From an uncultured delta proteobacterium (lineage in GTDB: Bacteria > Desulfobacterota > Desulfomonilia > Desulfomonilales > Desulfomonilaceae): DNA of 64,000 nucleotides. The stretch covers positions 1,856,001-1,920,000 of the forward strand of contig CAWBKB010000001.1 of NCBI GenBank assembly GCA_963789265.1, in the 5' to 3' direction. A program made the position numbers and the translations under genes. Below are positions 18,704 to 52,476 of this stretch, piece by piece (positions within the stretch are counted from its first letter, which is position 1; every line of letters starts with the position of its first letter). The notes beneath the pieces are model-generated. The model was not told the origin of the DNA, searched no databases, and saw nothing but the letters and a program-made list of their open reading frames with translations.

Positions 18704-20379
18704 GAGAGTGTCTCAAAACGGTTGTAGTGGCACGATGACGACTCTCGGGGTGGTAGGGTGCGGTTAATCTCGCACCTTGGCCTCCCTTGTCTCCGACGAG
18801 CCGGGGCCGGCTATGAGTATGCCTCAGGCAGCCATGAGTCACTCTCCGTCCTGATGTCTTAGGCCGCGGTTAGCACCAGACGCCCCGTCAGCCAATGGCT
18901 GTAGAGCTTCTTGAGATTCAAGGTGGCGCACATCAAAGACCATTGAGCCCTCGCATTGGATAATCCGGACACGGTCCACCGTCTAAAGTCCAAGTGGCTC
19001 TTTATCCATGCAAAGACCGGCTCAATGATCACCTTGCGGGCTCGGAGTAGCGTCTTGCTTTCCGGGACCTCCCGTTTCTTGCGGTGGCGCTCAACTGCGT
19101 CACGATAGATGTTAATGTCTATGAGACGGCCATTCTTGCTCTTGCTGCACTTCCACCGTTCAGGACACGTCAAGTAGTCCCGGCATCGATACCGCCGGAT
19201 CTCGTTTCCGTTTTTTCCTGTGACTTTCTTCTGAAGAAAGTTCAGCGATGCGCCTTGCGGACAAATACAGACGTCTCGCTCTTGGTCGTAGACGAACTGG
19301 GAAGCGTGATAAGGGTCCCATTGAGCGCCTTTTTCCGCAGCGGACTCTCCCGACGACTTGGCGACCAAGACCTCGTACTCCTTCTCTTCGGCCAACGCGA
19401 TTTGAGCCGATGCGAAGTATCCTGCGTCCGCCACGGTTTCCTCTGCGGTTGCGCCCAAATTTTCCTGAACTCGATCCAGCATGGGAACAAGCTGCCCATT
19501 GTCATTGCCTTCGTCGACCACTTCCTCAGCCACAATCATGCCGCTTTGTTGGTCTGCCACCGCTTGAGCATTGTAAGAGGGCTCAGTAGACCGCCGGTTC
19601 TTCATGTACCGGGCATCCGGCTCGCAGGGATGGACGACCTTCTTGTCAGTCTTATCCAATTCCTGCAAGGCCTTCTGTATCCGCTCCTTGCGTTTCAACT
19701 CGTCCTGCAGGGCTTCGGGAAGACGCCATTCGCCACCCTCCTCTTGCTCGCACCTCTCTGTCTCCGTCATGACGTCGGCAACGCACTTGTCCAAATTCTC
19801 AAGCATCCGCTCCAACTGATCTTGGTTCTTGAACTTCTCCCGAGATGATCCGACAGGGATCTTGGTTCCATCCAATGCATGAACCGCCATACCTATCAAC
19901 TCGGCTTTGACTGCCACTTGAACCGATTGTTTGAATATTCCCTTGAAAACCTTCTTGTTGTCCCTCCAGAATCGCCACAGGGTATTATGATCCGCTGCAT
20001 TCATACCCGTCAGCCAAATCAATCCCATGTTCTCCATGCATGCCTTCTCAAGCTTGCGCGATGACCTGATTCTGCTGAAATAGCCGTAGAGCCATGCCTT
20101 CAACAAAAGATCGGTACTATAGGGAGGACGGCCCGTTTCGCCATTCGGAACTCGAAAACCCAGCACCTCCAAATCCAAGGAATCCACAAAGTCTCCTATG
20201 AAGCGCGCTGGATGATCAGGCCCTATCCAGTCATCTATAGCGGGCGGAAGCAGAAACACCTGCTTGTAGTCGGCTCTGATTTGCGGCATAATCCTTTCCC
20301 TCTCCGATTCTCTTTTCACATCTCATTAGTAGAATCGGTTGAGAATCGCGAGCCCAAAATCGACTTTTGAGACAGTTTC
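18704..20379 (-). mobile_element. IS1182 family insertion sequence
   Basis: IRs GAGAGTGTCTCAAAA and TTTTGAGACAGTTTC (13/15); TAAA target duplication at 18700-18703 and 20380-20383. Confidence 0.88.
18859..20289 (-). CDS. IS1182 family transposase
   Basis: GRPPY...LLKAWLYGY...SSRKLE, ALDGTK, YNAQ, VADAGY, CICPQG, IEPVF. Confidence 0.93.
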   Translation of the reverse strand: MPQIRADYKQVFLLPPAIDDWIGPDHPARFIGDFVDSLDLEVLGFRVPNGETGRPPYSTDLLLKAWLYGYFSRIRSSRKLEKACMENMGLIWLTGMNAADHNTLWRFWRDNKKVFKGIFKQSVQVAVKAELIGMAVHALDGTKIPVGSSREKFKNQDQLERMLENLDKCVADVMTETERCEQEEGGEWRLPEALQDELKRKERIQKALQELDKTDKKVVHPCEPDARYMKNRRSTEPSYNAQAVADQQSGMIVAEEVVDEGNDNGQLVPMLDRVQENLGATAEETVADAGYFASAQIALAEEKEYEVLVAKSSGESAAEKGAQWDPYHASQFVYDQERDVCICPQGASLNFLQKKVTGKNGNEIRRYRCRDYLTCPERWKCSKSKNGRLIDINIYRDAVERHRKKREVPESKTLLRARKVIIEPVFAWIKSHLDFRRWTVSGLSNARAQWSLMCATLNLKKLYSHWLTGRLVLTAA

Positions 20380-29319: not shown

Positions 29320-30405
29320 CTAGTGTCCTGTCCCATTAATAAGTTTGCATATTTTCTCGACCTTTCTAAGGATTGAATCCGCTGTGGCCGTCCACACGAA
29401 AGGTCGTGCGTCTTGGTTATAGTTCTTCACGAAGTCTTCAATGCGTTCAACGAGTTGTTTGGTACCTGTAAAGGACCCTCGAACTATGGCCCGCTGGGAG
29501 ATTACCCCAAACCATCGTTCGACCTGATTAAGCCAGGATGCATACGTAGGTGTGTAATGAACGGAAAATCTAGGGTGGCTGGCGAGCCAGTTTTTGACCT
29601 TGTGGTGCTTGTGAGTGCAGTAGTTGTCTACAATAAGGTGCACGTTGAGGTCAGCCGGTACGTTTTTGTCCACCCGTTTGAGGAAACTAAGGAACTCCTG
29701 ATGCCTGTGTCGCTGTTTACACTCTGTGATCACTTGCCCGGTTGCCACGTCCAAAGCTGTAAAGAGCGTGGTGGTGCCATGGCGAAGGTAGTCATGGGTG
29801 ACTCCGTCCACATACCCGAGCCCCAAAGGCAACACAGGTTGACTACGCTCCAGAGCCTGGATCTGGGTCTTCTCGTCCACAGACAGTACCAGGGCCTTGT
29901 CCGGTGGATTCAGGTACAGTCCCACAATATCCCGAACTTTTTCTACAAACTGAGGGTCCGTAGAAAGCTTAAACGATTTAGTGAGATGCGGCTTAATACC
30001 AAAAAGATCCATACACCTTTGCACCGCACTCTTGGAGATTCCGGTCGAGCGCTCCAGACTTCTCATAGTCCATCGATTCCCTTGCGTCGGAGCGGTCTCC
30101 AGGACTGTTTGCAGCAATTGCGCTACCTTCTCGTCGTCATGATCCCTGGGCCGTCCCGGACGTTGCTCCCCATACAGCCCCGCAAGTCCCTGCTCGAGAA
30201 AACGCCTTCGCCAATGGGTTACCGTGCCACCGGATATCCCCAAACGCTGGGCAATAGACGTGTTCGATTCTCCTTCGGACGAGGCCAGAATGATTTGCGC
30301 CCTACGGACAACCCCGTGCCGCGACGTTCGAGATCTGGTCAAATTCTGCAACTCTTTACGCTCCAAATCCGAAAGGACGATTTCCTGTTTCTTGGGACGC
30401 CCCAT
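29320..30405 (-). CDS. IS630 family transposase
   Basis: HTH N-terminus; SVDEKTQIQAL, YLRHGT, IVDNYCTHK, SWLNQVERWF DDE motifs; stop codon lies in the IR/target site. Confidence 0.95.
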   Translation of the reverse strand: MGRPKKQEIVLSDLERKELQNLTRSRTSRHGVVRRAQIILASSEGESNTSIAQRLGISGGTVTHWRRRFLEQGLAGLYGEQRPGRPRDHDDEKVAQLLQTVLETAPTQGNRWTMRSLERSTGISKSAVQRCMDLFGIKPHLTKSFKLSTDPQFVEKVRDIVGLYLNPPDKALVLSVDEKTQIQALERSQPVLPLGLGYVDGVTHDYLRHGTTTLFTALDVATGQVITECKQRHRHQEFLSFLKRVDKNVPADLNVHLIVDNYCTHKHHKVKNWLASHPRFSVHYTPTYASWLNQVERWFGVISQRAIVRGSFTGTKQLVERIEDFVKNYNQDARPFVWTATADSILRKVEKICKLINGTGH

Positions 30406-32550: not shown

Positions 32551-33754
32551 TCAGACCGCCCGCTCGATGATTGTCGCTACACCTTGGCCGCCGCCTACAC
32601 ACGCGTTGGCGCAGCCGTACCGTCCATTGTTCTGCTCCAGTATGCGGGCCAGAGTTCCTACCAGCCGAATCCCCGTCGCACCCAGAGCATGCCCGATGGC
32701 GACTCCTCCCCCCTTGACGTTAACCTTTTCCGGATCTATCCCCAACTCTTTGATGCAGTTCAGAGCCACAACGGAAAATGCCTCGTTTATCTCCCAGTAA
32801 TCAATGTCCTTGGCCTGGAGCCCTGCCTTTTGAAGTGCTTTTTGGCTGGCAGGCACCGGCCCCGCGCCCATAATCGTGGGATCTACCCCCGCGAATCCGA
32901 TGGACTTTATAGTAGCCAAGGGCTTGATCCCCTTTGCCTGAGCCGCTTCCTTTGACATCAAGATCATGGATGAAGCGGCCGCATTGAGCGGAGATGAATT
33001 CCCCGCGGTTATCTGATGGTCCTTCTTGTACGCAGGTGAGAGCTTTGCCAAGCCCTCGAGGGTCGTATCCGCTCGGTACAGCCTGATCCGTCTTCACGGT
33101 AAGAGTCGTACCGTCCGCCTGGGGCGCGTCTATGGGTAGTATCTCTCCATCAAAGAAACCATCTGCCTGTGCCTTAGCGGCGCGGTGGTGAGATCGCAGG
33201 GACCATTTGTCCATATCTTCCCTGGTCAGGCCGGACTGAAGGAGCAGCTTCTGGGCTGTAAGCCCCATATTCAGAGTGGTCATCATGTCCCAGTGCAGGT
33301 ACTCCGGAGCAGAGAATAACGCCAAATTGGGGGCGATCAACCCACCTTCCGTGGTCGATTGCCCCATTGGAATCCTCGTCATGTGCTCCATCCCGCCCAC
33401 CATGACGATATCGGCATTACCCGTGCCAACCTCAAGAAAACCCACGTGTATCGCGGCCATTGAGGAACCGCACTGCTGGTCCACAAACTTTGCCGCAACC
33501 GTCTTGGGGAAATTGGCCAAAAAGATCGGGAAACGACCGCCATAAGCCCATTGCTCACCGACCGCGGTGGCGCACCCTACTATGAAATCGTCGATTTCCT
33601 CGGGGTTAATCCCTGTTCTCTTGGCAACTTCAGGGAGCAACTTGGCCAACATTTCATCGGCCCGCATCTTGCCGAATACGTCCCTGGCCGGATCTTTAGG
33701 CCGCGAGCGGGATTGAGCTGTCCTCAAGTATCCTGCTATTACTACTTCTCTCAT
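32551..33754 (-). CDS. Acetyl-CoA C-acyltransferase (FadA-type thiolase); +1 frameshift near 33075, probably a sequencing error
   Basis: QQCGSS in the N-part; NEAF, GHALGATG, ACVGGGQG in the C-part; removing one base from GTACCGAGCG restores DQAVRADTTLEGLAKL. Confidence 0.88.
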
Positions 33755-41347: not shown

Positions 41348-42164
41348 TTACAGTGGCTTTGTAGCCCTGAACAAAACTCCCTTGGTCTCGGCAGAACTGT
41401 CAATCCCTGTATGAGAGACCATCTCGGCTTCGACAAAGCCGACCTGCTTCAACATCGCCAGGAAATCCTTTCCTGGTATGGCTCCGCCAATTCACCCCGC
41501 CCAGTTGTCAATCCGCGTCTTGATATCCTCCGGCAGATAACCGGTAAGTACCTCGTCAGCCATCATGAGGCGTCCGCCGGGCTTCAGTACCTCTGAAGAC
41601 CTCTCTCAGGGCCTTTGGTTTGTCAGGCACGAGATTGAAAACCCCGCTGGAAATGACAACATCGAAATCTTGATCCGGGAATGGCAAATCTTCAGCAGAT
41701 GACTTCTGGAACGAGACATTTTTGAGATCGGTCAGGCCAAGATTTTGCCTTGCCCGTTCCACCATCTCGGGAGTCATGTCAATACCCACGGCCCTACCCG
41801 CGGGCCCTGCCATTATAGCGGCAATCATCGTGTCCACACCGCCGCCGCAGCCAATATCAAGGACGCTCTCGCCCTTCCGTATTTCTCCAAGAGAGAAGGG
41901 ATTGCCTACTCCGCAGAATGAGTCCAACACAGTCTCAGGCAAGGTGCGGAGAATATCCGGATCATATTTCAGGGTCTCCAGCCCGGCACGTCCTGTCGAG
42001 TAATTGAAGAGACCATGAGGATTGACCGCAACCTTGGCATATTTTCCCAGGATGCCACCCTCAATCTTCTTTCTGTGCTCGCCCGTAAGACTGGTTTTCA
42101 TGATCGAAAATCCTCCAAATCCCCCAACCTGGTCGAGTAGATCGTGTGCTCGGACCATCTTCAT
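41348..42164 (-). CDS. Arsenite-methyltransferase-like SAM methyltransferase, predicted selenoprotein (UGA at 41494-41492); +1 frameshift near 41590; start could instead be 42101
   Basis: SFCGVGNP, VLDIGCGGG, GIDMTPEM; after removing one G the frame reads RVLKPGGRL...NWAG-U-IGGA...GF...RATKPL*; hairpin downstream of the UGA. Confidence 0.82.
41458..41476 (-). promoter_or_regulatory. Candidate bacterial SECIS element of the methyltransferase
   Basis: CCAGGAAA-GGA-TTTCCTGG perfect 8-bp stem; loop starts with G, 23 nt after the UGA. Confidence 0.7.
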
Positions 42165-42439: not shown

Positions 42440-43234
42440 ATGAAACGATGCTTAATCAGTCTACTAGCAGTTGTCATCGGCCTGTTAGTCCTCGGTACTT
42501 CCGGCAATTGTCTTGCCGGGAGCAAGGAAGACGTATCGAGTTCATGCGTGGCGCCCGCACGAGGCCCCATTCTGGCTATGGCTCAGGAATCGACTGCCTC
42601 TCGGGCTCAGTCTCCAGCGGCCCCGGTCCAGCCTCTGGCGAAAGTCGGTAAACCCGCCCCTGATTTCGAGGCCAATGCTTTTGTTAACGGGATGTTCAAG
42701 AATGTCAAACTGTCGGACTACAAAGGCCAATGGGTAGCGCTCTGCTTCTATCCTGGCGACTTCACTTTTGTTTGACCGACCGTACTCACGGCAGTTGCCG
42801 CGAAGTATAATGAGCTGAAGTCATTGGGTGTGGAAGTACTGGCTTTAAGCACTGATAGTCGCTTTTCTCACAAGATATGGCAGGAAGCCGAACTAACCAA
42901 GATGATCCCCGGAGGCGTGCCGTATCCGATGCTTTCGGACGCCGGAGGCATGATTGGGAAAGTTTACGGGGTCTATGACGAGACTTCAGGGGTCAATATT
43001 CGCGGAAGATTCATAATCGACCCAGACGGAACAATCCAGGCTATGGAAATCTTGACCCCATCGGTCGGGCGCAATGTCGCCGAACTGATCCGGCAGGTGA
43101 AGGCATTTCAACATGTGCGACAAACCGGGGAGGCCACTCCATCCGGTTGGCAACCAGGGAGGCCGACATTGAAACCCGGCCCTGAGTTGGTAGGACAGGT
43201 GTGGAAGATTTGGAAGCCTGACAAGGCATTCTAG
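42440..43234 (+). CDS. prxU: Selenocysteine-containing peroxiredoxin (AhpC/Prx1-like) with N-terminal signal peptide; UGA at 42773-42775
   Basis: ORFs 42440..42775 and 42824..43234 are in frame; [12 protein letters not shown] has UGA at the peroxidatic Cys position; [17 protein letters not shown] ggagg. Confidence 0.9.
42783..42807 (+). promoter_or_regulatory. Candidate bacterial SECIS element of the peroxiredoxin
   Basis: TACTCACGGC-AGTT-GCCGCGAAGTA stem-loop with G in the apical loop, 17 nt after the UGA. Confidence 0.7.
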
Positions 43235-43346: not shown

Positions 43347-43511
43347 TCAATTGGAAACCCCCTCTCGGATCTCCGATACTGCCTGCTCGAAACCCACTGG
43401 CTCTGAAGGCCCGCTTTTGGCTTCATCGTAGGCACGGATATCATCGAGTTCTTCAAGCATCTCGCAAGCTGCTGTTATATGGCCGCCTGAGACATGATCT
43501 TTTTCCATCAG
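43347..43511 (-). pseudogene. Antitoxin-like small ORF or remnant
   Basis: EMLEELDDIRAYDEAK..E.V.FEQAV C-terminus resembles small type II antitoxins; no toxin gene follows. Confidence 0.4.
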
Positions 43512-43855
43512 GTCGCCGTTTCCTGTTCCAAGATCTTCAGTACGTCTTCGCGAAGCGAGGGTATCCTTTTTTCCACAACGTCCCAAACGATGTCATAGTC
43601 AACTCCAAAATAGTCGTGGATTAGACGATCTCTCATTCCCGCTATGGATTTCCACTTCACGGCAGGATATCGATTCTTAAGTTCAGATGGGATCTTCTTC
43701 GATGCTTCCCCTATGATTTCGATGCTTCACACGAACGCTCGTTTGAGCGTCGCATCTTCCAGAAACTGCTCTTTGCTCAGCCCCTGTTTTTGAAGAATGA
43801 GATATTCCGTTTCATCAAGTATGTGGCGAAGATACTCAAGCGGCGAGACCTGCAT
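43508..43855 (-). pseudogene. HepT-like (DUF86) ribonuclease toxin with in-frame nonsense codon at 43729-43727
   Basis: MQVSPLEYLRHILDE...[16 protein letters not shown]...[14 protein letters not shown] (RX4H motif); TGA sits where Arg (CGA) is expected. Confidence 0.85.
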
Positions 43856-44144
43856 ACTCAACCTCTCTGAGAATGTGAGGACCAATGTAGGGGCTGAGAG
43901 ATTCTACAGTGACGACTTCAGTCCTGTGCTGAAGAATGTCGTCCACAAAGAAGCACAATTCCATAAAAGCATCGAATGTCTTTTGTCCTGGCTCAAATTC
44001 GACCAGTAGATCGATGTCACTGTCAGGCCGCTGCTCTCCGCGAACAAAAGAGCCAAACAATCCGATCTTCTTCACGCCCAGCGCCCGCAAGCGAGATCGG
44101 TTCTGTTCGAGTGTAGCCAGAATATCCTGCTTTGTCTTGATCAT
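43836..44144 (-). CDS. Minimal nucleotidyltransferase antitoxin (MntA-like)
   Basis: GLFGSFVRGEQRPDSDIDLLVEF; overlaps the HEPN gene. Confidence 0.9.
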   Translation of the reverse strand: MIKTKQDILATLEQNRSRLRALGVKKIGLFGSFVRGEQRPDSDIDLLVEFEPGQKTFDAFMELCFFVDDILQHRTEVVTVESLSPYIGPHILREVEYAGLAA

Positions 44145-49000: not shown

Positions 49001-49231
49001 TGGCCTCATCAGATGACGGAAGCCACTGGCATTATCGAAAGGCTCTGCAGAATCGTGGCCTCGGGTTCTTTTCTCCCGACAAACGATTCCAAGGAGGATT
49101 GCCCTTTTTGCGATTATCTCTTTATATGTGGAAACACCACCGCTCTTGCCGCTGCAAGCACGCGCAAGCTCAAGAATCTTCGCAACGCGAGTTTACAACC
49201 TTTCCGAGAGTTGAGGAACCTTGTTGCATGA
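46057..49231 (+). CDS. addB: AddB-like helicase-nuclease subunit (PD-(D/E)XK with Fe-S Cys); +1 frameshift near 46628
   Basis: SARRLETIGSCPLRYFF, GNLLHEV, GRIDRVD, WDYKTG, CPFCDYLFIC; ORFs 46057..46641 and 46643..49231 join on removal of one A. Confidence 0.8.
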
Positions 49232-52200
49232 TCCTCTGAAAAGGCCGCCGGACCAGGACCAACGGGACACAGTTCTTAACGAACTCGACAAGACTCTGCT
49301 GGTCGAGGCGGCGGCCGGCACCGGCAAGACCACCGGCATGATCGGCCGAATGGTCAAACTGTTGGCATCAGGTAAATGCTCGATAGATGCTCTAGCTGCG
49401 GTGACTTTCACTCGTAAGGCTTCCGCGGAGTTGCGGGCCCGGTTTCAAGTTGAGTTGGAAAGAGCACACAGAAGCGCGGAAACTTTGTCAAGGAAACTTC
49501 TGTCCGAAGCCCTATCAGGGATCGAACGATGCTTCATAGGGACGATCCATTCTTTTTGCGCCAGAATGTTGCGCGAGCGTCCTGTGGAAGCCGGGGAGGA
49601 CTTGGCTTTCGAGGAGATTGATGAGGCAACAGATCAGGAGCTACGGCAGCTAGCCTGGGACCAATATGTGTCAAATCTCTATGCTTCCGATTCTCCCATA
49701 CTGGCGGAGTTAGAGGCCGTTGGAGTTGAGGTGGGCCAGCTCCAAGAGGCTTTCATGAAATTTGCCGATTATCCCGATGTGGACGAATGGCCGGCCAGAG
49801 TGCTTCCTGCGCCTGACCTCGGGCCCGCGCTGGAGCAACTGGCCGAGTACGTCCGTCATATTGGACGGCTTGCCGTGTCCCTCCCAGAAGACTCCGGAAA
49901 CGATACGCTCATTCCCAAGTATCGAATCATCCCCCTCATGTTTCGACAGCTCAAGCATCGTAGGCCCCACGAGATAGTCGAGATCCTCTCTCAGGTCACC
50001 AAAGTGAAAATTGTGAAGAAGAAACTGGCCGGAGGGGAGTCGGCAAGCGTTAGATGAGCTGCAAAGGTGGGACAATTTCCGAGAGGAAATAGCTGAACCC
50101 ATAATGAAGTCGTGGCTCGAGTTCAAGTATGAACCGCTGATGAGAGCCATTCGGCCCGCGACAGAAATTTATGACGAGCTGAGAATGAAGTCCGGAAGAC
50201 TCAATTATCAGGACCTTCTCATGCACGCGGCTCGACTTCTTAGAGACAAGCCATCGGTCAGGGAATATTTTCGCCGACGGTTCACTCGTATCCTGGTTGA
50301 TGAATTCCAGGACACCGATCCAATCCAGGCTGAGGTCTTGATGTTCCTCACATCCGACGATCCACTGGAGCAGGATTGGCGCAGGTGTCGGCCGATTCCC
50401 GGCTCTCTGTTTGTCGTAGGAGACCCGAAGCAGTCTATCTACCGGTTTCGCCGGGCCGACATCGTAACGTACAATCAGGTCAAAGAGATCATCCGGCGCA
50501 ACGGAGGCCAAGTGGTGCATCTTTCGGCCAATTTCCGGACGCTCCCGCCCCTTGTTGATTGGGTCAATGAAACGTTTGAGGAGAAGTTCCGAGAATATCC
50601 GACCGAGTGTTCCCCCGAATATGTGCCCCTTTTACCGGTACGAGGTGCCGAGACCAAGGCAGGTATTGTCAGTGTTCGGACGCTGTGGATACCCAAGGCA
50701 TACCGGAACAACGACCAAATAGGGGAATACGAGGGCGGTATGATCGCCGGCACGATCCGACATGCGCTGGACAAGGGGCTCACTCTACCCCGGACTGAGA
50801 AAGAAGCCGCGGCAGGAGTGCCCAAACGAGTCCACCCGGGAGATTTTCTTATCGTGACCCCGACGACAGGTAAACTGGGCGTTTACAGCAGGAAACTTCA
50901 GGAGTTGGGGATTCCTCATCTCGTTACCGGCGGAAGTGCGATGAATCAAGTTCAGGAACTGATGTTGTTGCACACCTGCCTTGTTGCTGCTACCCAACCC
51001 GAAAATCCCGTGGCTCTGGTCGCTGCCCTAAGAAGTGAACTCTTCGGCATGAGCGATCAGGCTCTGTATGATTTCAAACAGTGCGGAGGTCAATTTTCCT
51101 TTCACAGCTCGATTCCGAATGCCCTCGACTTGCAGGCAAGCCGCGCCTTTGCGGACGCATTCGACCGCCTGCGAAAATATGCGCTCTGGCTGTTACGGTT
51201 TCCGGCTGTCTCTGCCATCGAAAGGATATCGGACGACCTTGGGCTTGCGGCTCGAGCGTGTGCCGGTCCCGGAGGCGATGTTCAAGCTGGGAGTCTGGCC
51301 AAGGCCATAGAATTGTTGCGTGACGCTCAGACCGAACACTGGACGGTGGCCGGACTGGTAGAGAGTTTGGGCAAGTTCATTCAAGAGGACGAGACTCATG
51401 ACGCGATACCTGCGAGACCTCCCGAAATACCAGTTGTCAGAGTCATGAATCTGCACAAAGTAAAGGGCCTTGAGGCTCCTGTGGTCTTTCTGGCGGATCC
51501 GACAGGAAACAAAACCCACCCGGTGGATTTGCACATAGACCGTTCAGGAGACAGGGTTTGCGGATACATGGCCATCGAAGGCAATGTCTTGGGGAGGGGT
51601 AGAAAGGCGGTCCTGGCTCTGCCGGAGCAATGGGAGTCTTTTGCCGACAAAGAAGAGCAATTTCAGCAAGCTGAAGTTCTCCGCCTCCGTTACGTTGCGG
51701 CCACCAGGGCTGGATGTCGGCTCATAGTTTCACAGCGGGAGAATTTTCAGAATCTGAACCCTTGGGCATTCTTTGAACCTCACCTGACCGACCAGCCTTC
51801 GCTCTCTGAGCCGGGTCCGCAAAAGGCCGACATCGACACTCCAATTACTGTTAGCGAACAAGAAGTGTCCAAGGGGGTAGCTGCGATTGGTCAAAAGTGG
51901 ATCAATGCGGTCCCAAACACCTATTCAGTCGCCTCAGTGAAAAAGGAGGCCCTGGAAAAAGAGAGAATCCTCTACCATCACGGCGAGCACGGCGTCGAAT
52001 GGGGTTCCGTGATACACCTGCTCCTGCAAACCGCGATGACCGTACCCGACTCCAAGTTGGACGCATTAGCCCGGGCCGCACTGTCGGAGCAGGGTCTCGA
52101 CCCGGCGCTGGCTGAACATGCTCTCGAAACGGTCGCGTCGGTTACGAGATCGGAAGTGTGGAAACGTGCCCTGGACAGCCAACGTCGGCTGGTGGAAACG

Positions 52201-52476
52201 CCCTTCCAGAGGCTGATGCCGGACAAAGAAACGAATCGTGGGACGATTCTGAGAGGTGTCATAGACCTTGCCTTCCTGGAAGAAGCAGGCGGTTGGGTGA
52301 TCGTTGATTACAAGACTGATCGTGTCGCCAAGGAACGAATGCCCGAGCTTGTCGATTTGTATCGTCCCCAGGTGATCGGTTACTCGGAAGCATGGGAGCA
52401 GATTACCGGTCAATCGGTGAGTGAGGTTGGCCTATATTTTATCCATGTTCAAAGTTATGTGAAAATAGGAATGTAG
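49221..52476 (+). CDS. addA: AddA-like UvrD helicase-nuclease; +1 frameshift near 50023
   Basis: AAAGTGKT, TFTRKA, VDEFQDT, VGDPKQSIYRFR, HKVKGLE, YVAATRA, GVIDL...VDYKTD. Confidence 0.85.

Follow-up and report, generated by a model that had tools for sequence, protein, structure and literature searches.

Can an in-frame TGA be read as selenocysteine (Sec) in a methyltransferase gene that is also broken by a single extra base, and what would the resulting enzyme act on? These questions are raised by a locus on the minus strand of a 64,000-nucleotide stretch of DNA (hereafter the window) from an uncultured delta proteobacterium of the Desulfomonilaceae (contig CAWBKB010000001.1, positions 1,856,001 to 1,920,000), which holds a gene resembling that for arsenite methyltransferase (ArsM). 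We consider it highly likely that the locus encodes a Sec-containing ArsM-like methyltransferase, complete with a Sec codon and a selenocysteine insertion sequence (SECIS), a judgment that covers gene identity, codon, and hairpin only. As far as profile matches and alignments can tell, the locus is a stand-alone, single-Sec member of a known arsenite-methyltransferase-like selenoprotein family.

Layout of the gene

The gene, which depends on S-adenosylmethionine (SAM) by its fold and motifs, consists of the following parts, all on the minus strand.

41348..42101, minus strand: ArsM-like SAM methyltransferase gene, 250 codons, from ATG 42101 to TAA 41350-41348, broken by one extra base
41592..42101, minus strand: frame A, the N-terminal 170 codons, MKTSLT...KALREVFR (Methyltransf_31; NF041537 positions 1-170)
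41591..41591, minus strand: extra base G, in AGA-G-GTACTG, causing a +1 frame shift and abutting GTAC
41495..41590, minus strand: frame B, 32 codons, VLKPGGRLMMADEVLTGYLPEDIKTRIDNWAG, covering motif III/beta-5 and the stretch that leads to the Sec site (NF041537 from position 171; alignment to solved ArsM/AS3MT)
41492..41494, minus strand: in-frame TGA, predicted Sec, residue 203, UxxG motif (aligned with the ArsM Cys column)
41458..41476, minus strand: putative SECIS hairpin, overlapping the PGKDFL codons (fold, RNAalifold, and pair counts)
41351..41491, minus strand: predicted post-Sec tail, 47 codons, IGGAIPGKDFLAMLKQVGFVEAEMVSHTGIDSSAETKGVLFRATKPL (IGGAIPGKDF...ATKPL; profile, structure, and locus alignments)
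41348..41350, minus strand: TAA stop, closing the protein where the methyltransferase domain ends; an AhpD, DUF2284, or UxPK tail is absent

The open reading frame (ORF) listed for the methyltransferase spans 41556-42164, and a first-pass annotation, made from the letters alone, had started the gene at 42164. Relatives instead begin at the second in-frame Met, ATG 42101 (MKTSLT...), which is the likely start. When both breaks are bridged, read-through gives a product of 170 + 32 + 1 + 47 = 250 residues. Frame A carries Cys63 (in FCGVGNPF), SAM motif I (LDIGCGGG), and ISSGVFNL, and its final codon before the break is AGA (41594-41592). The same annotation had described a frameshift at about 41590, a TGA at 41494-41492 followed by 47 codons to a TAA, and a hairpin whose loop lies 23 nucleotides (nt) past the TGA. 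All three were borne out: the frameshift is a single extra G at 41591, the TGA and its 47 codons stand where they had been placed, and the loop is the GGA at 41468-41466.

The TGA aligns with an arsenic-binding cysteine

The TGA aligns with the Cys of WGECLGGA (W-x-x-C-x-G-G) in the solved arsenite methyltransferases 8xt7, 5evj, and 4kw7, and this column is that of the arsenic-binding Cys206 of human AS3MT (PMC3877260). For the comparison with relatives, one genome per GTDB species was scanned, and the best 80 of 311 confirmed loci were kept. The Sec site was unreadable in two of the 80, once behind a frameshift upstream of the site (L005) and once where the contig ends before it (L017). Among the 78 readable loci, the codon was TGA in 77 and TGC in 1 (L039). 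The motif [U/C]-x-G-G was found at the site in 74 loci (73 with TGA, plus L039 with TGC), and L029, L053, L056, and L062 had a TGA followed by other residues or by the end of the contig. The translation past the TGA is conserved in the related loci as GGA[IV]PG.DFL…GF…TG..SS..T.G.LF. The first-pass annotation had proposed an ArsM-like methyltransferase in which Sec takes the place of the conserved C-terminal Cys and had suggested an alignment of Cys and TGA forms as a check; the structure alignment, the NCBIfam models, and the TGA/TGC counts all agree with its proposal.

It had also held that homologues ending at this codon would speak against Sec. The annotated proteins mostly do end there: about 110 of the 119 listed database homologues (the window's own protein excluded) are 200 to 204 amino acids (aa) long and stop at the TGA after ...NWAG, as they would if the TGA were an ordinary stop and the protein family ended at that point. 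These endings are misleading, because the DNA continues in frame, and we regard them as an artefact of gene calling. Conserved translation runs past the TGA in related loci, the TGA column is Cys both in ArsM/AS3MT and in L039, the hairpin downstream shows covariation, and curated NCBI selenoprotein models span exactly that site. An ordinary stop is exceedingly improbable and, by these alignments, appears already contradicted by the comparative data.

A conserved hairpin follows the TGA

Downstream of the TGA lies CCAGGAAA-GGA-TTTCCTGG (the 3' arm is also given as UUUCCUGG), a perfect 8-bp stem with a 3-nt loop. Its arms are at 41476-41469 and 41465-41458, and 15 nt separate the TGA from the stem. 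Folded alone, the window sequence was indistinguishable from shuffles (z = -0.71), and the case for a SECIS is therefore built on comparative data rather than on folding energy. We aligned the window with 61 loci (62 sequences) without gaps, over a span that opens 12 nt ahead of the TGA and closes 72 nt from its first base. The alignment excludes the Cys form L039, L004 (indel), L064 (deletion), and a divergent subgroup of 10 loci. The 8-bp hairpin was the only consensus structure that RNAalifold returned for the 62 sequences. Pairing was kept in 97.1% of 488 cells versus 93.7% in shuffles (0 of 500 shuffles as high), and compensatory double changes were seen at 3 of the 8 pairs (20 cells versus 2.9 expected; 0 of 500 shuffles as high), while sliding the 3' arm by 1 to 3 columns left a pairing of at most 72%. 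The double changes that preserve the stem alter the protein (KDF to RDF, EAL, TEF, or TVF), and because they do so and yet keep the stem, the constraint must lie on the RNA. A second subgroup of 10 loci (Nitrospirota and others) forms a hairpin of its own, which sits 4 nt upstream of this position and shows compensatory change at 4 of its 7 pairs, and the Cys-form relative L039 has two stem mismatches. A scan of the window with Rfam at gathering thresholds gave no match. These comparisons indicate that the hairpin is a bacterial SECIS just 3' of the UGA, where the consensus structure and the compensatory changes support the element first proposed from the single sequence.

SECIS elements of the Escherichia coli fdhF type are hairpins within the coding region, shortly after the UGA, with a G in the apical loop. 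Set against this general description rather than against a model, the window hairpin is alike in its coding-region position soon after the UGA and in the G of its apical loop, and some relatives of subgroup B come closer still in having a GGUC-type loop. It is unlike the fdhF type in its perfect 8-bp stem, its 3-nt GGA loop, and its lack of a bulged U. Following the standard bacterial mechanism, from which these steps are taken, a ribosome would reach the UGA at 41494-41492, the hairpin 15 nt downstream would recruit SelB with Sec-tRNA(Sec), Sec would be inserted, and the 47 further codons would be translated.

A neighbouring gene for a selenoprotein peroxiredoxin

Evidence that the organism uses Sec comes from the gene next door, which is transcribed divergently.

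42440..43234, plus strand: PrxU selenoprotein peroxiredoxin, divergent neighbour of the methyltransferase gene (NF040737)

Its score with NF040737 (peroxi_PrxU) was 375.1 bits, above the cut-off of 270, and its TGA at 42773-42775 occupies the peroxidatic Cys position. Because this adjoining gene is itself a selenoprotein gene, it is independent evidence for the decoding of UGA as Sec, and on this comparison the organism very probably decodes Sec. Folding of the PrxU region alone was uninformative (z = -0.43). A scan of the window for in-frame TGAs in further selenoprotein genes left PrxU as the only credible one. The methyltransferase and PrxU genes share one 338-bp intergenic region, and the ORF lists split PrxU in two.

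A stand-alone member of a catalogued family

Next, we looked at how the product relates to curated families. It matched the Pfam families Methyltransf_31 (6.2e-29) and Ubie_methyltran (3.6e-15) and, among solved structures, 5evj (2.2e-14). The best NCBIfam models, NF041537, NF041536, and NF047649, are all curated selenoprotein models, and the match covered their positions 1-249/250, that is, the methyltransferase domain only. The two pieces of the gene scored 282.5 + 122.0 bits with NF041537 (E values of 3.7e-84 and 2.3e-35; cut-off 510), 230.9 + 93.2 bits with NF047649 (cut-off 460), and 134.2 + 58.6 bits with the ArsM model NF008823 (cut-off 263), with which eight scanned relatives scored 175 to 202.

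NF041537 (ArsM_AhpD_UU), the best-scoring model, has the same Sec site and SECIS, and the closest relatives at the DNA level, L001 and L003, belong to it as full members (81% and 79% identity; L001 scored 605 bits against the cut-off of 510). In contrast to these, the window gene stops after position 249/250, without the AhpD domain and its CxxU, and remains below the cut-off. NF047649 (MTase_UXPK_star) and NF041536 (ArsM_DUF2284_UU) are alike in methyltransferase domain, UxxG Sec, and hairpin place but extend further, either into a C-terminal U-x-P-K-stop tail that bears a second Sec or into a DUF2284 domain. The window gene has neither, and its protein ends ...FRATKPL-TAA without a U-x-P-K-stop tail. 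A tblastn search with the tails of seven relatives (AhpD, DUF2284, and UxPK) found no remnant downstream of the TAA, the best match (E = 0.2) lying elsewhere in the window. Relatives of this length that stand alone and carry a single Sec do occur, namely L002 (252 aa) and L008 (257 aa), which stop at the equivalent point, as well as L036, L045, L046, L060, L072, L073, and L077.

A 2026 review lists "Arsenite methyltransferase, NF008823, UxxG, 1 Sec" as "experimentally verified," citing Fomenko et al. 2007, and takes three fused forms from Haft & Tolstoy 2025 (PMC13188914); the same arsenite methyltransferase entry is found in a review from 2022 (PMC9312934). The family is already catalogued, and the window gene is a further member of it, broken in the assembly. 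It resembles the one-Sec arsenite methyltransferase of the reviews in its ArsM-type domain, its stand-alone form, and its one U-x-x-G Sec at the AS3MT Cys206/207 column, a likeness drawn from the review listing rather than from a protein sequence, and it differs in that the window copy is frameshifted. We take reference 16 of the AS3MT paper mentioned above to be Fomenko et al. Where that paper cites the reference, it credits it with work on Cys157/Cys207 of mouse AS3MT only (PMC3877260).

The AhpD-fused relatives L001, L003, L006, L007, and L009 have two more in-frame TGAs in a C-terminal ...C-x-x-U...S-G-U tail, about 130 to 160 codons past the methyltransferase domain and beyond both the CxxU and the 345 positions of NF041537. 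If all of these were Sec, the AhpD-fused relatives would hold four Sec, against three in the review.

Cysteine ligands and possible substrates

Across 57 aligned family members, the only invariant Cys/Sec columns were Cys63 (FCGVGNPF) and U/C203 (57 of 57 for both); a third Cys, in SAM motif I (DIGCGGG), was present in 51. The first-pass annotation had reported the middle catalytic Cys as missing, and so it is: ISSGVFNL aligns with ISNCVINL, Gly stands in the middle Cys column, and [SN]G was found in all 80 related loci. Its statement that SFCGVGNP is retained holds for the presence of the Cys but not for its place, since in a phmmer alignment Cys63 falls two columns upstream of the Cys of ArsM FWGCGNP.

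Cys156 and Cys206 of AS3MT are required for both methylations, and the enzyme binds arsenite through three Cys and methylarsenite through two (PMC3877260). The window gene and the canonical ArsM/AS3MT enzymes (5evj, 4fr0/4kw7, and 8xt7; NF008823) are alike in fold, SAM motifs, and the C-terminal arsenic-binding position, which is Sec here. They differ at the second arsenic-binding Cys (Cys156), which is Gly in the window gene and in the 80 loci, and may differ at the N-terminal Cys of the first methylation (Cys61 of human AS3MT, Cys72 of CmArsM), the invariant Cys of the window clade standing two columns before it by sequence alignment.

Because the family is without the second arsenic-binding Cys of ArsM, its site would offer two ligands and not three, which leaves arsenite as no more than one of the candidate substrates. 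Read through in full, the gene would give a class I SAM-dependent methyltransferase of 250 residues with Cys63 and Sec203 (W-x-x-U-x-G-G) as invariant soft ligands, which would hold a thiophilic substrate beside the SAM methyl group. The substrate might be a trivalent metalloid, for instance As(III) or methyl-As(III), or else a thiol or chalcogen compound. Judging from the ligand columns, arsenite does not seem assured as the substrate, and the clade may act on a two-coordinate or different thiophilic substrate. A stronger version, which we offer tentatively and which falls short of being probable, is that the enzymes of this clade would not methylate arsenite at all and would instead use their Cys and Sec as the two ligands of another thiophilic substrate, such as methyl-As(III), Se, Te, Sb, or a thiol or selenol on a protein or small molecule. 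It draws on the invariance of Cys63 and Sec203, on the lack of a Cys156 equivalent in the 80 loci, and on the ArsM scores below the cut-off. The CxxU or UxPK tails of the fused relatives, missing from the window protein, may be the redox partner.

A single extra base breaks the assembled gene

Several observations weigh against our reading of the locus. A scan of the 64-kb window for transfer RNAs (tRNAs) found 0, hence no tRNA-Sec, and among the 54 ORFs of the window that were scanned with Pfam, there was no selA, selB, or selD. The window pieces and the intact stand-alone relatives reach none of the curated NCBIfam cut-offs, which the fused forms do exceed; L002, which is intact and stand-alone, scored 434 bits against 510 and 197 against 263, and L008, L036, L045, and L060 were likewise below the cut-offs. 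To our knowledge, no member of the clade has been assayed, and its substrate and chemistry are what we infer; in full-text literature searches, we came across no enzymatic work on a Sec-containing member. As assembled, moreover, the gene cannot yield the full protein, for frame A stops 11 codons past the shift. The closest database protein (P0003), which comes from another contig and has the same length, is 89% identical over 181 gap-free aa and shares the out-of-frame tail. Finally, lineage-specific substitutions are denser after the shift than before it (14 of 80 versus 16 of 170), which could mean some relaxation.

The shift is exactly one base, with NF041537 positions up to 170 in frame A and those from 171 in frame B, and it was seen in 0 of the 79 related loci that cover the site. 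The tails of P0003 (KSTEARWTPHDG) and of the window (RGTEARRTPHDG) read STEARWTPHDG and GTEARRTPHDG. Back-translation implies an extra A in P0003 at the place of the extra G of the window, and the other difference between the tails, R to W, fits a change from GGC to GGT that is silent in the true frame. Random error would not place an extra base in the diverged P0003 as well, and its recurrence there calls for an error of a systematic kind or for a genuine, inherited change. Frameshift-like tails elsewhere in the gene were found in other homologues (P0083, P0026, P0028/L005, and L004).

Of the columns with a conservation of 90% or more, the window gene keeps 21 of 21 downstream of the shift and 49 of 50 before it. 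The 14 lineage-specific substitutions in the downstream part all avoid conserved columns ((59/80)^14, or ~0.014 by our own arithmetic), and 2 of the 14 are common to the intact relative P0004. The SECIS is perfect, and there is no further stop. The window also holds two other single-extra-base frameshifts, both in otherwise intact conserved genes.

32551-33754, minus strand: thiolase of a beta-oxidation cluster, with an extra base, GCTGTA[C]CGAGCG, near 33073, abutting GTAC
49221-52476, plus strand: AddA-like UvrD/PD-(D/E)XK helicase-nuclease, with a +1 shift within 50017-50057, near a GGGG run

The halves of the thiolase lie in different frames, Thiolase_N 15-221 in one and 226-260 plus Thiolase_C (7.7e-47) in the other. 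GTAC directly abuts two of the three extra bases in the window, as well as the one deduced for P0003; the window has 173 GTAC sites, and by our post-hoc estimate the probability of such an association by chance is ~1e-4. The length of the contig, 2.59 Mb, suggests a long-read assembly. Because the downstream frame has not decayed, the SECIS is perfect, other single-base shifts occur, and extra bases are associated with GTAC, we favour a systematic assembly or base-calling error at 41591. We rank this explanation first and consider it somewhat probable.

If the extra base were real, the gene would be a pseudogene, inactivated in a common ancestor with the P0003 organism or independently in each. 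The out-of-frame tail common to P0003, the restriction of the shift to this lineage, and the roughly twofold density of substitutions after it all fit such a loss, as does the absence of the AhpD domain of the closest relatives, L001 and L003; a nonsense TGA in a HepT gene (described below) and the two other frameshifted genes make gene decay in this genome conceivable. However, a break that predates the split from P0003 (11% protein divergence) should have let the 80 downstream codons drift, and the conserved columns, the Sec codon, and the SECIS were kept with no added stop. The R-to-W difference of the P0003 tail, compatible with a silent change in the true frame, and the association with GTAC, which points to a technical cause, likewise argue against inactivation. 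We rank a pseudogene second and think it rather unlikely.

The two diverged sequences share the shift site but not the identity of the extra base, and the downstream frame looks to be under selection. Both points would also fit a programmed +1 frameshift at UUC-AGA-G-GUA (AAR-A-GUA in P0003), in which case the gene would be doubly recoded. AGA is often a rare, slowly decoded codon, which would favour such a shift. Yet the P-site tRNA would find no slippery sequence to re-pair with, no conserved stimulator was identified, the other 79 of 79 covering loci encode the region in one frame, and two unrelated genes of the window have the same kind of single extra base. Ranked third, programmed frameshifting is very improbable. 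A gene recoded twice, by Sec and by a +1 shift shared with P0003, would be a bolder, less likely version of the proposal that the clade does not methylate arsenite.

Gene neighbourhood and other features of the window

The window neighbours of the methyltransferase gene, PrxU, MaoC, NMO, MNT, and OYE, were searched for in the 80 loci, and no match had an E value below 0.2; the neighbourhood is not conserved and therefore gives no functional clue. The neighbours of the relatives are mixed and include prismane, DUF2284, AhpC/TSA, thioredoxin-reductase-like, P-type ATPase, and YHS genes, none of which the window shares. They suggest redox or metal chemistry but are not decisive.

In six of the eight UXPK-star-clade loci scanned (L024, L027, L028, L031, L033, and L034), a Flavin_Reduct gene lies directly upstream on the same strand, and this pairing may name the redox partner. 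An ArsR-family regulator lies two genes upstream in L001, and ORFs that match in size and place are present in L002 and L003.

A toxin-antitoxin pair lies on the far side of PrxU.

43508-43885 and 43836-44144, minus strand: HepT/MNT toxin-antitoxin pair

An in-frame TGA (43727-43729) interrupts the HepT frame directly ahead of SIEIIGEA, presumably at about the position of the conserved Arg of the HEPN Rx4-6H motif. This TGA looks like a nonsense mutation rather than a Sec codon. Two DDE transposase genes of different families are also present on the minus strand, at 18859-20319 (DDE_Tnp_1/DUF772) and at 29320-30405 (DDE_3 with helix-turn-helix domains).

Implications

The window copy in itself adds little to the family, and its oddest feature, the frameshift common to P0003, is more likely technical than biological. 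What it illustrates is that gene callers miss such selenoproteins, cutting most of the listed homologues at the TGA. The stand-alone, single-Sec forms, which stay below the cut-offs, are likely to remain annotated as a truncated "methyltransferase domain-containing protein" (the 202-aa entries). Members of the clade occur widely among sulfate-reducer-like lineages and the Nitrospirota, and in them one Cys and one Sec replace the three-Cys site of ArsM. The identity of their substrate bears on anaerobic metalloid methylation.

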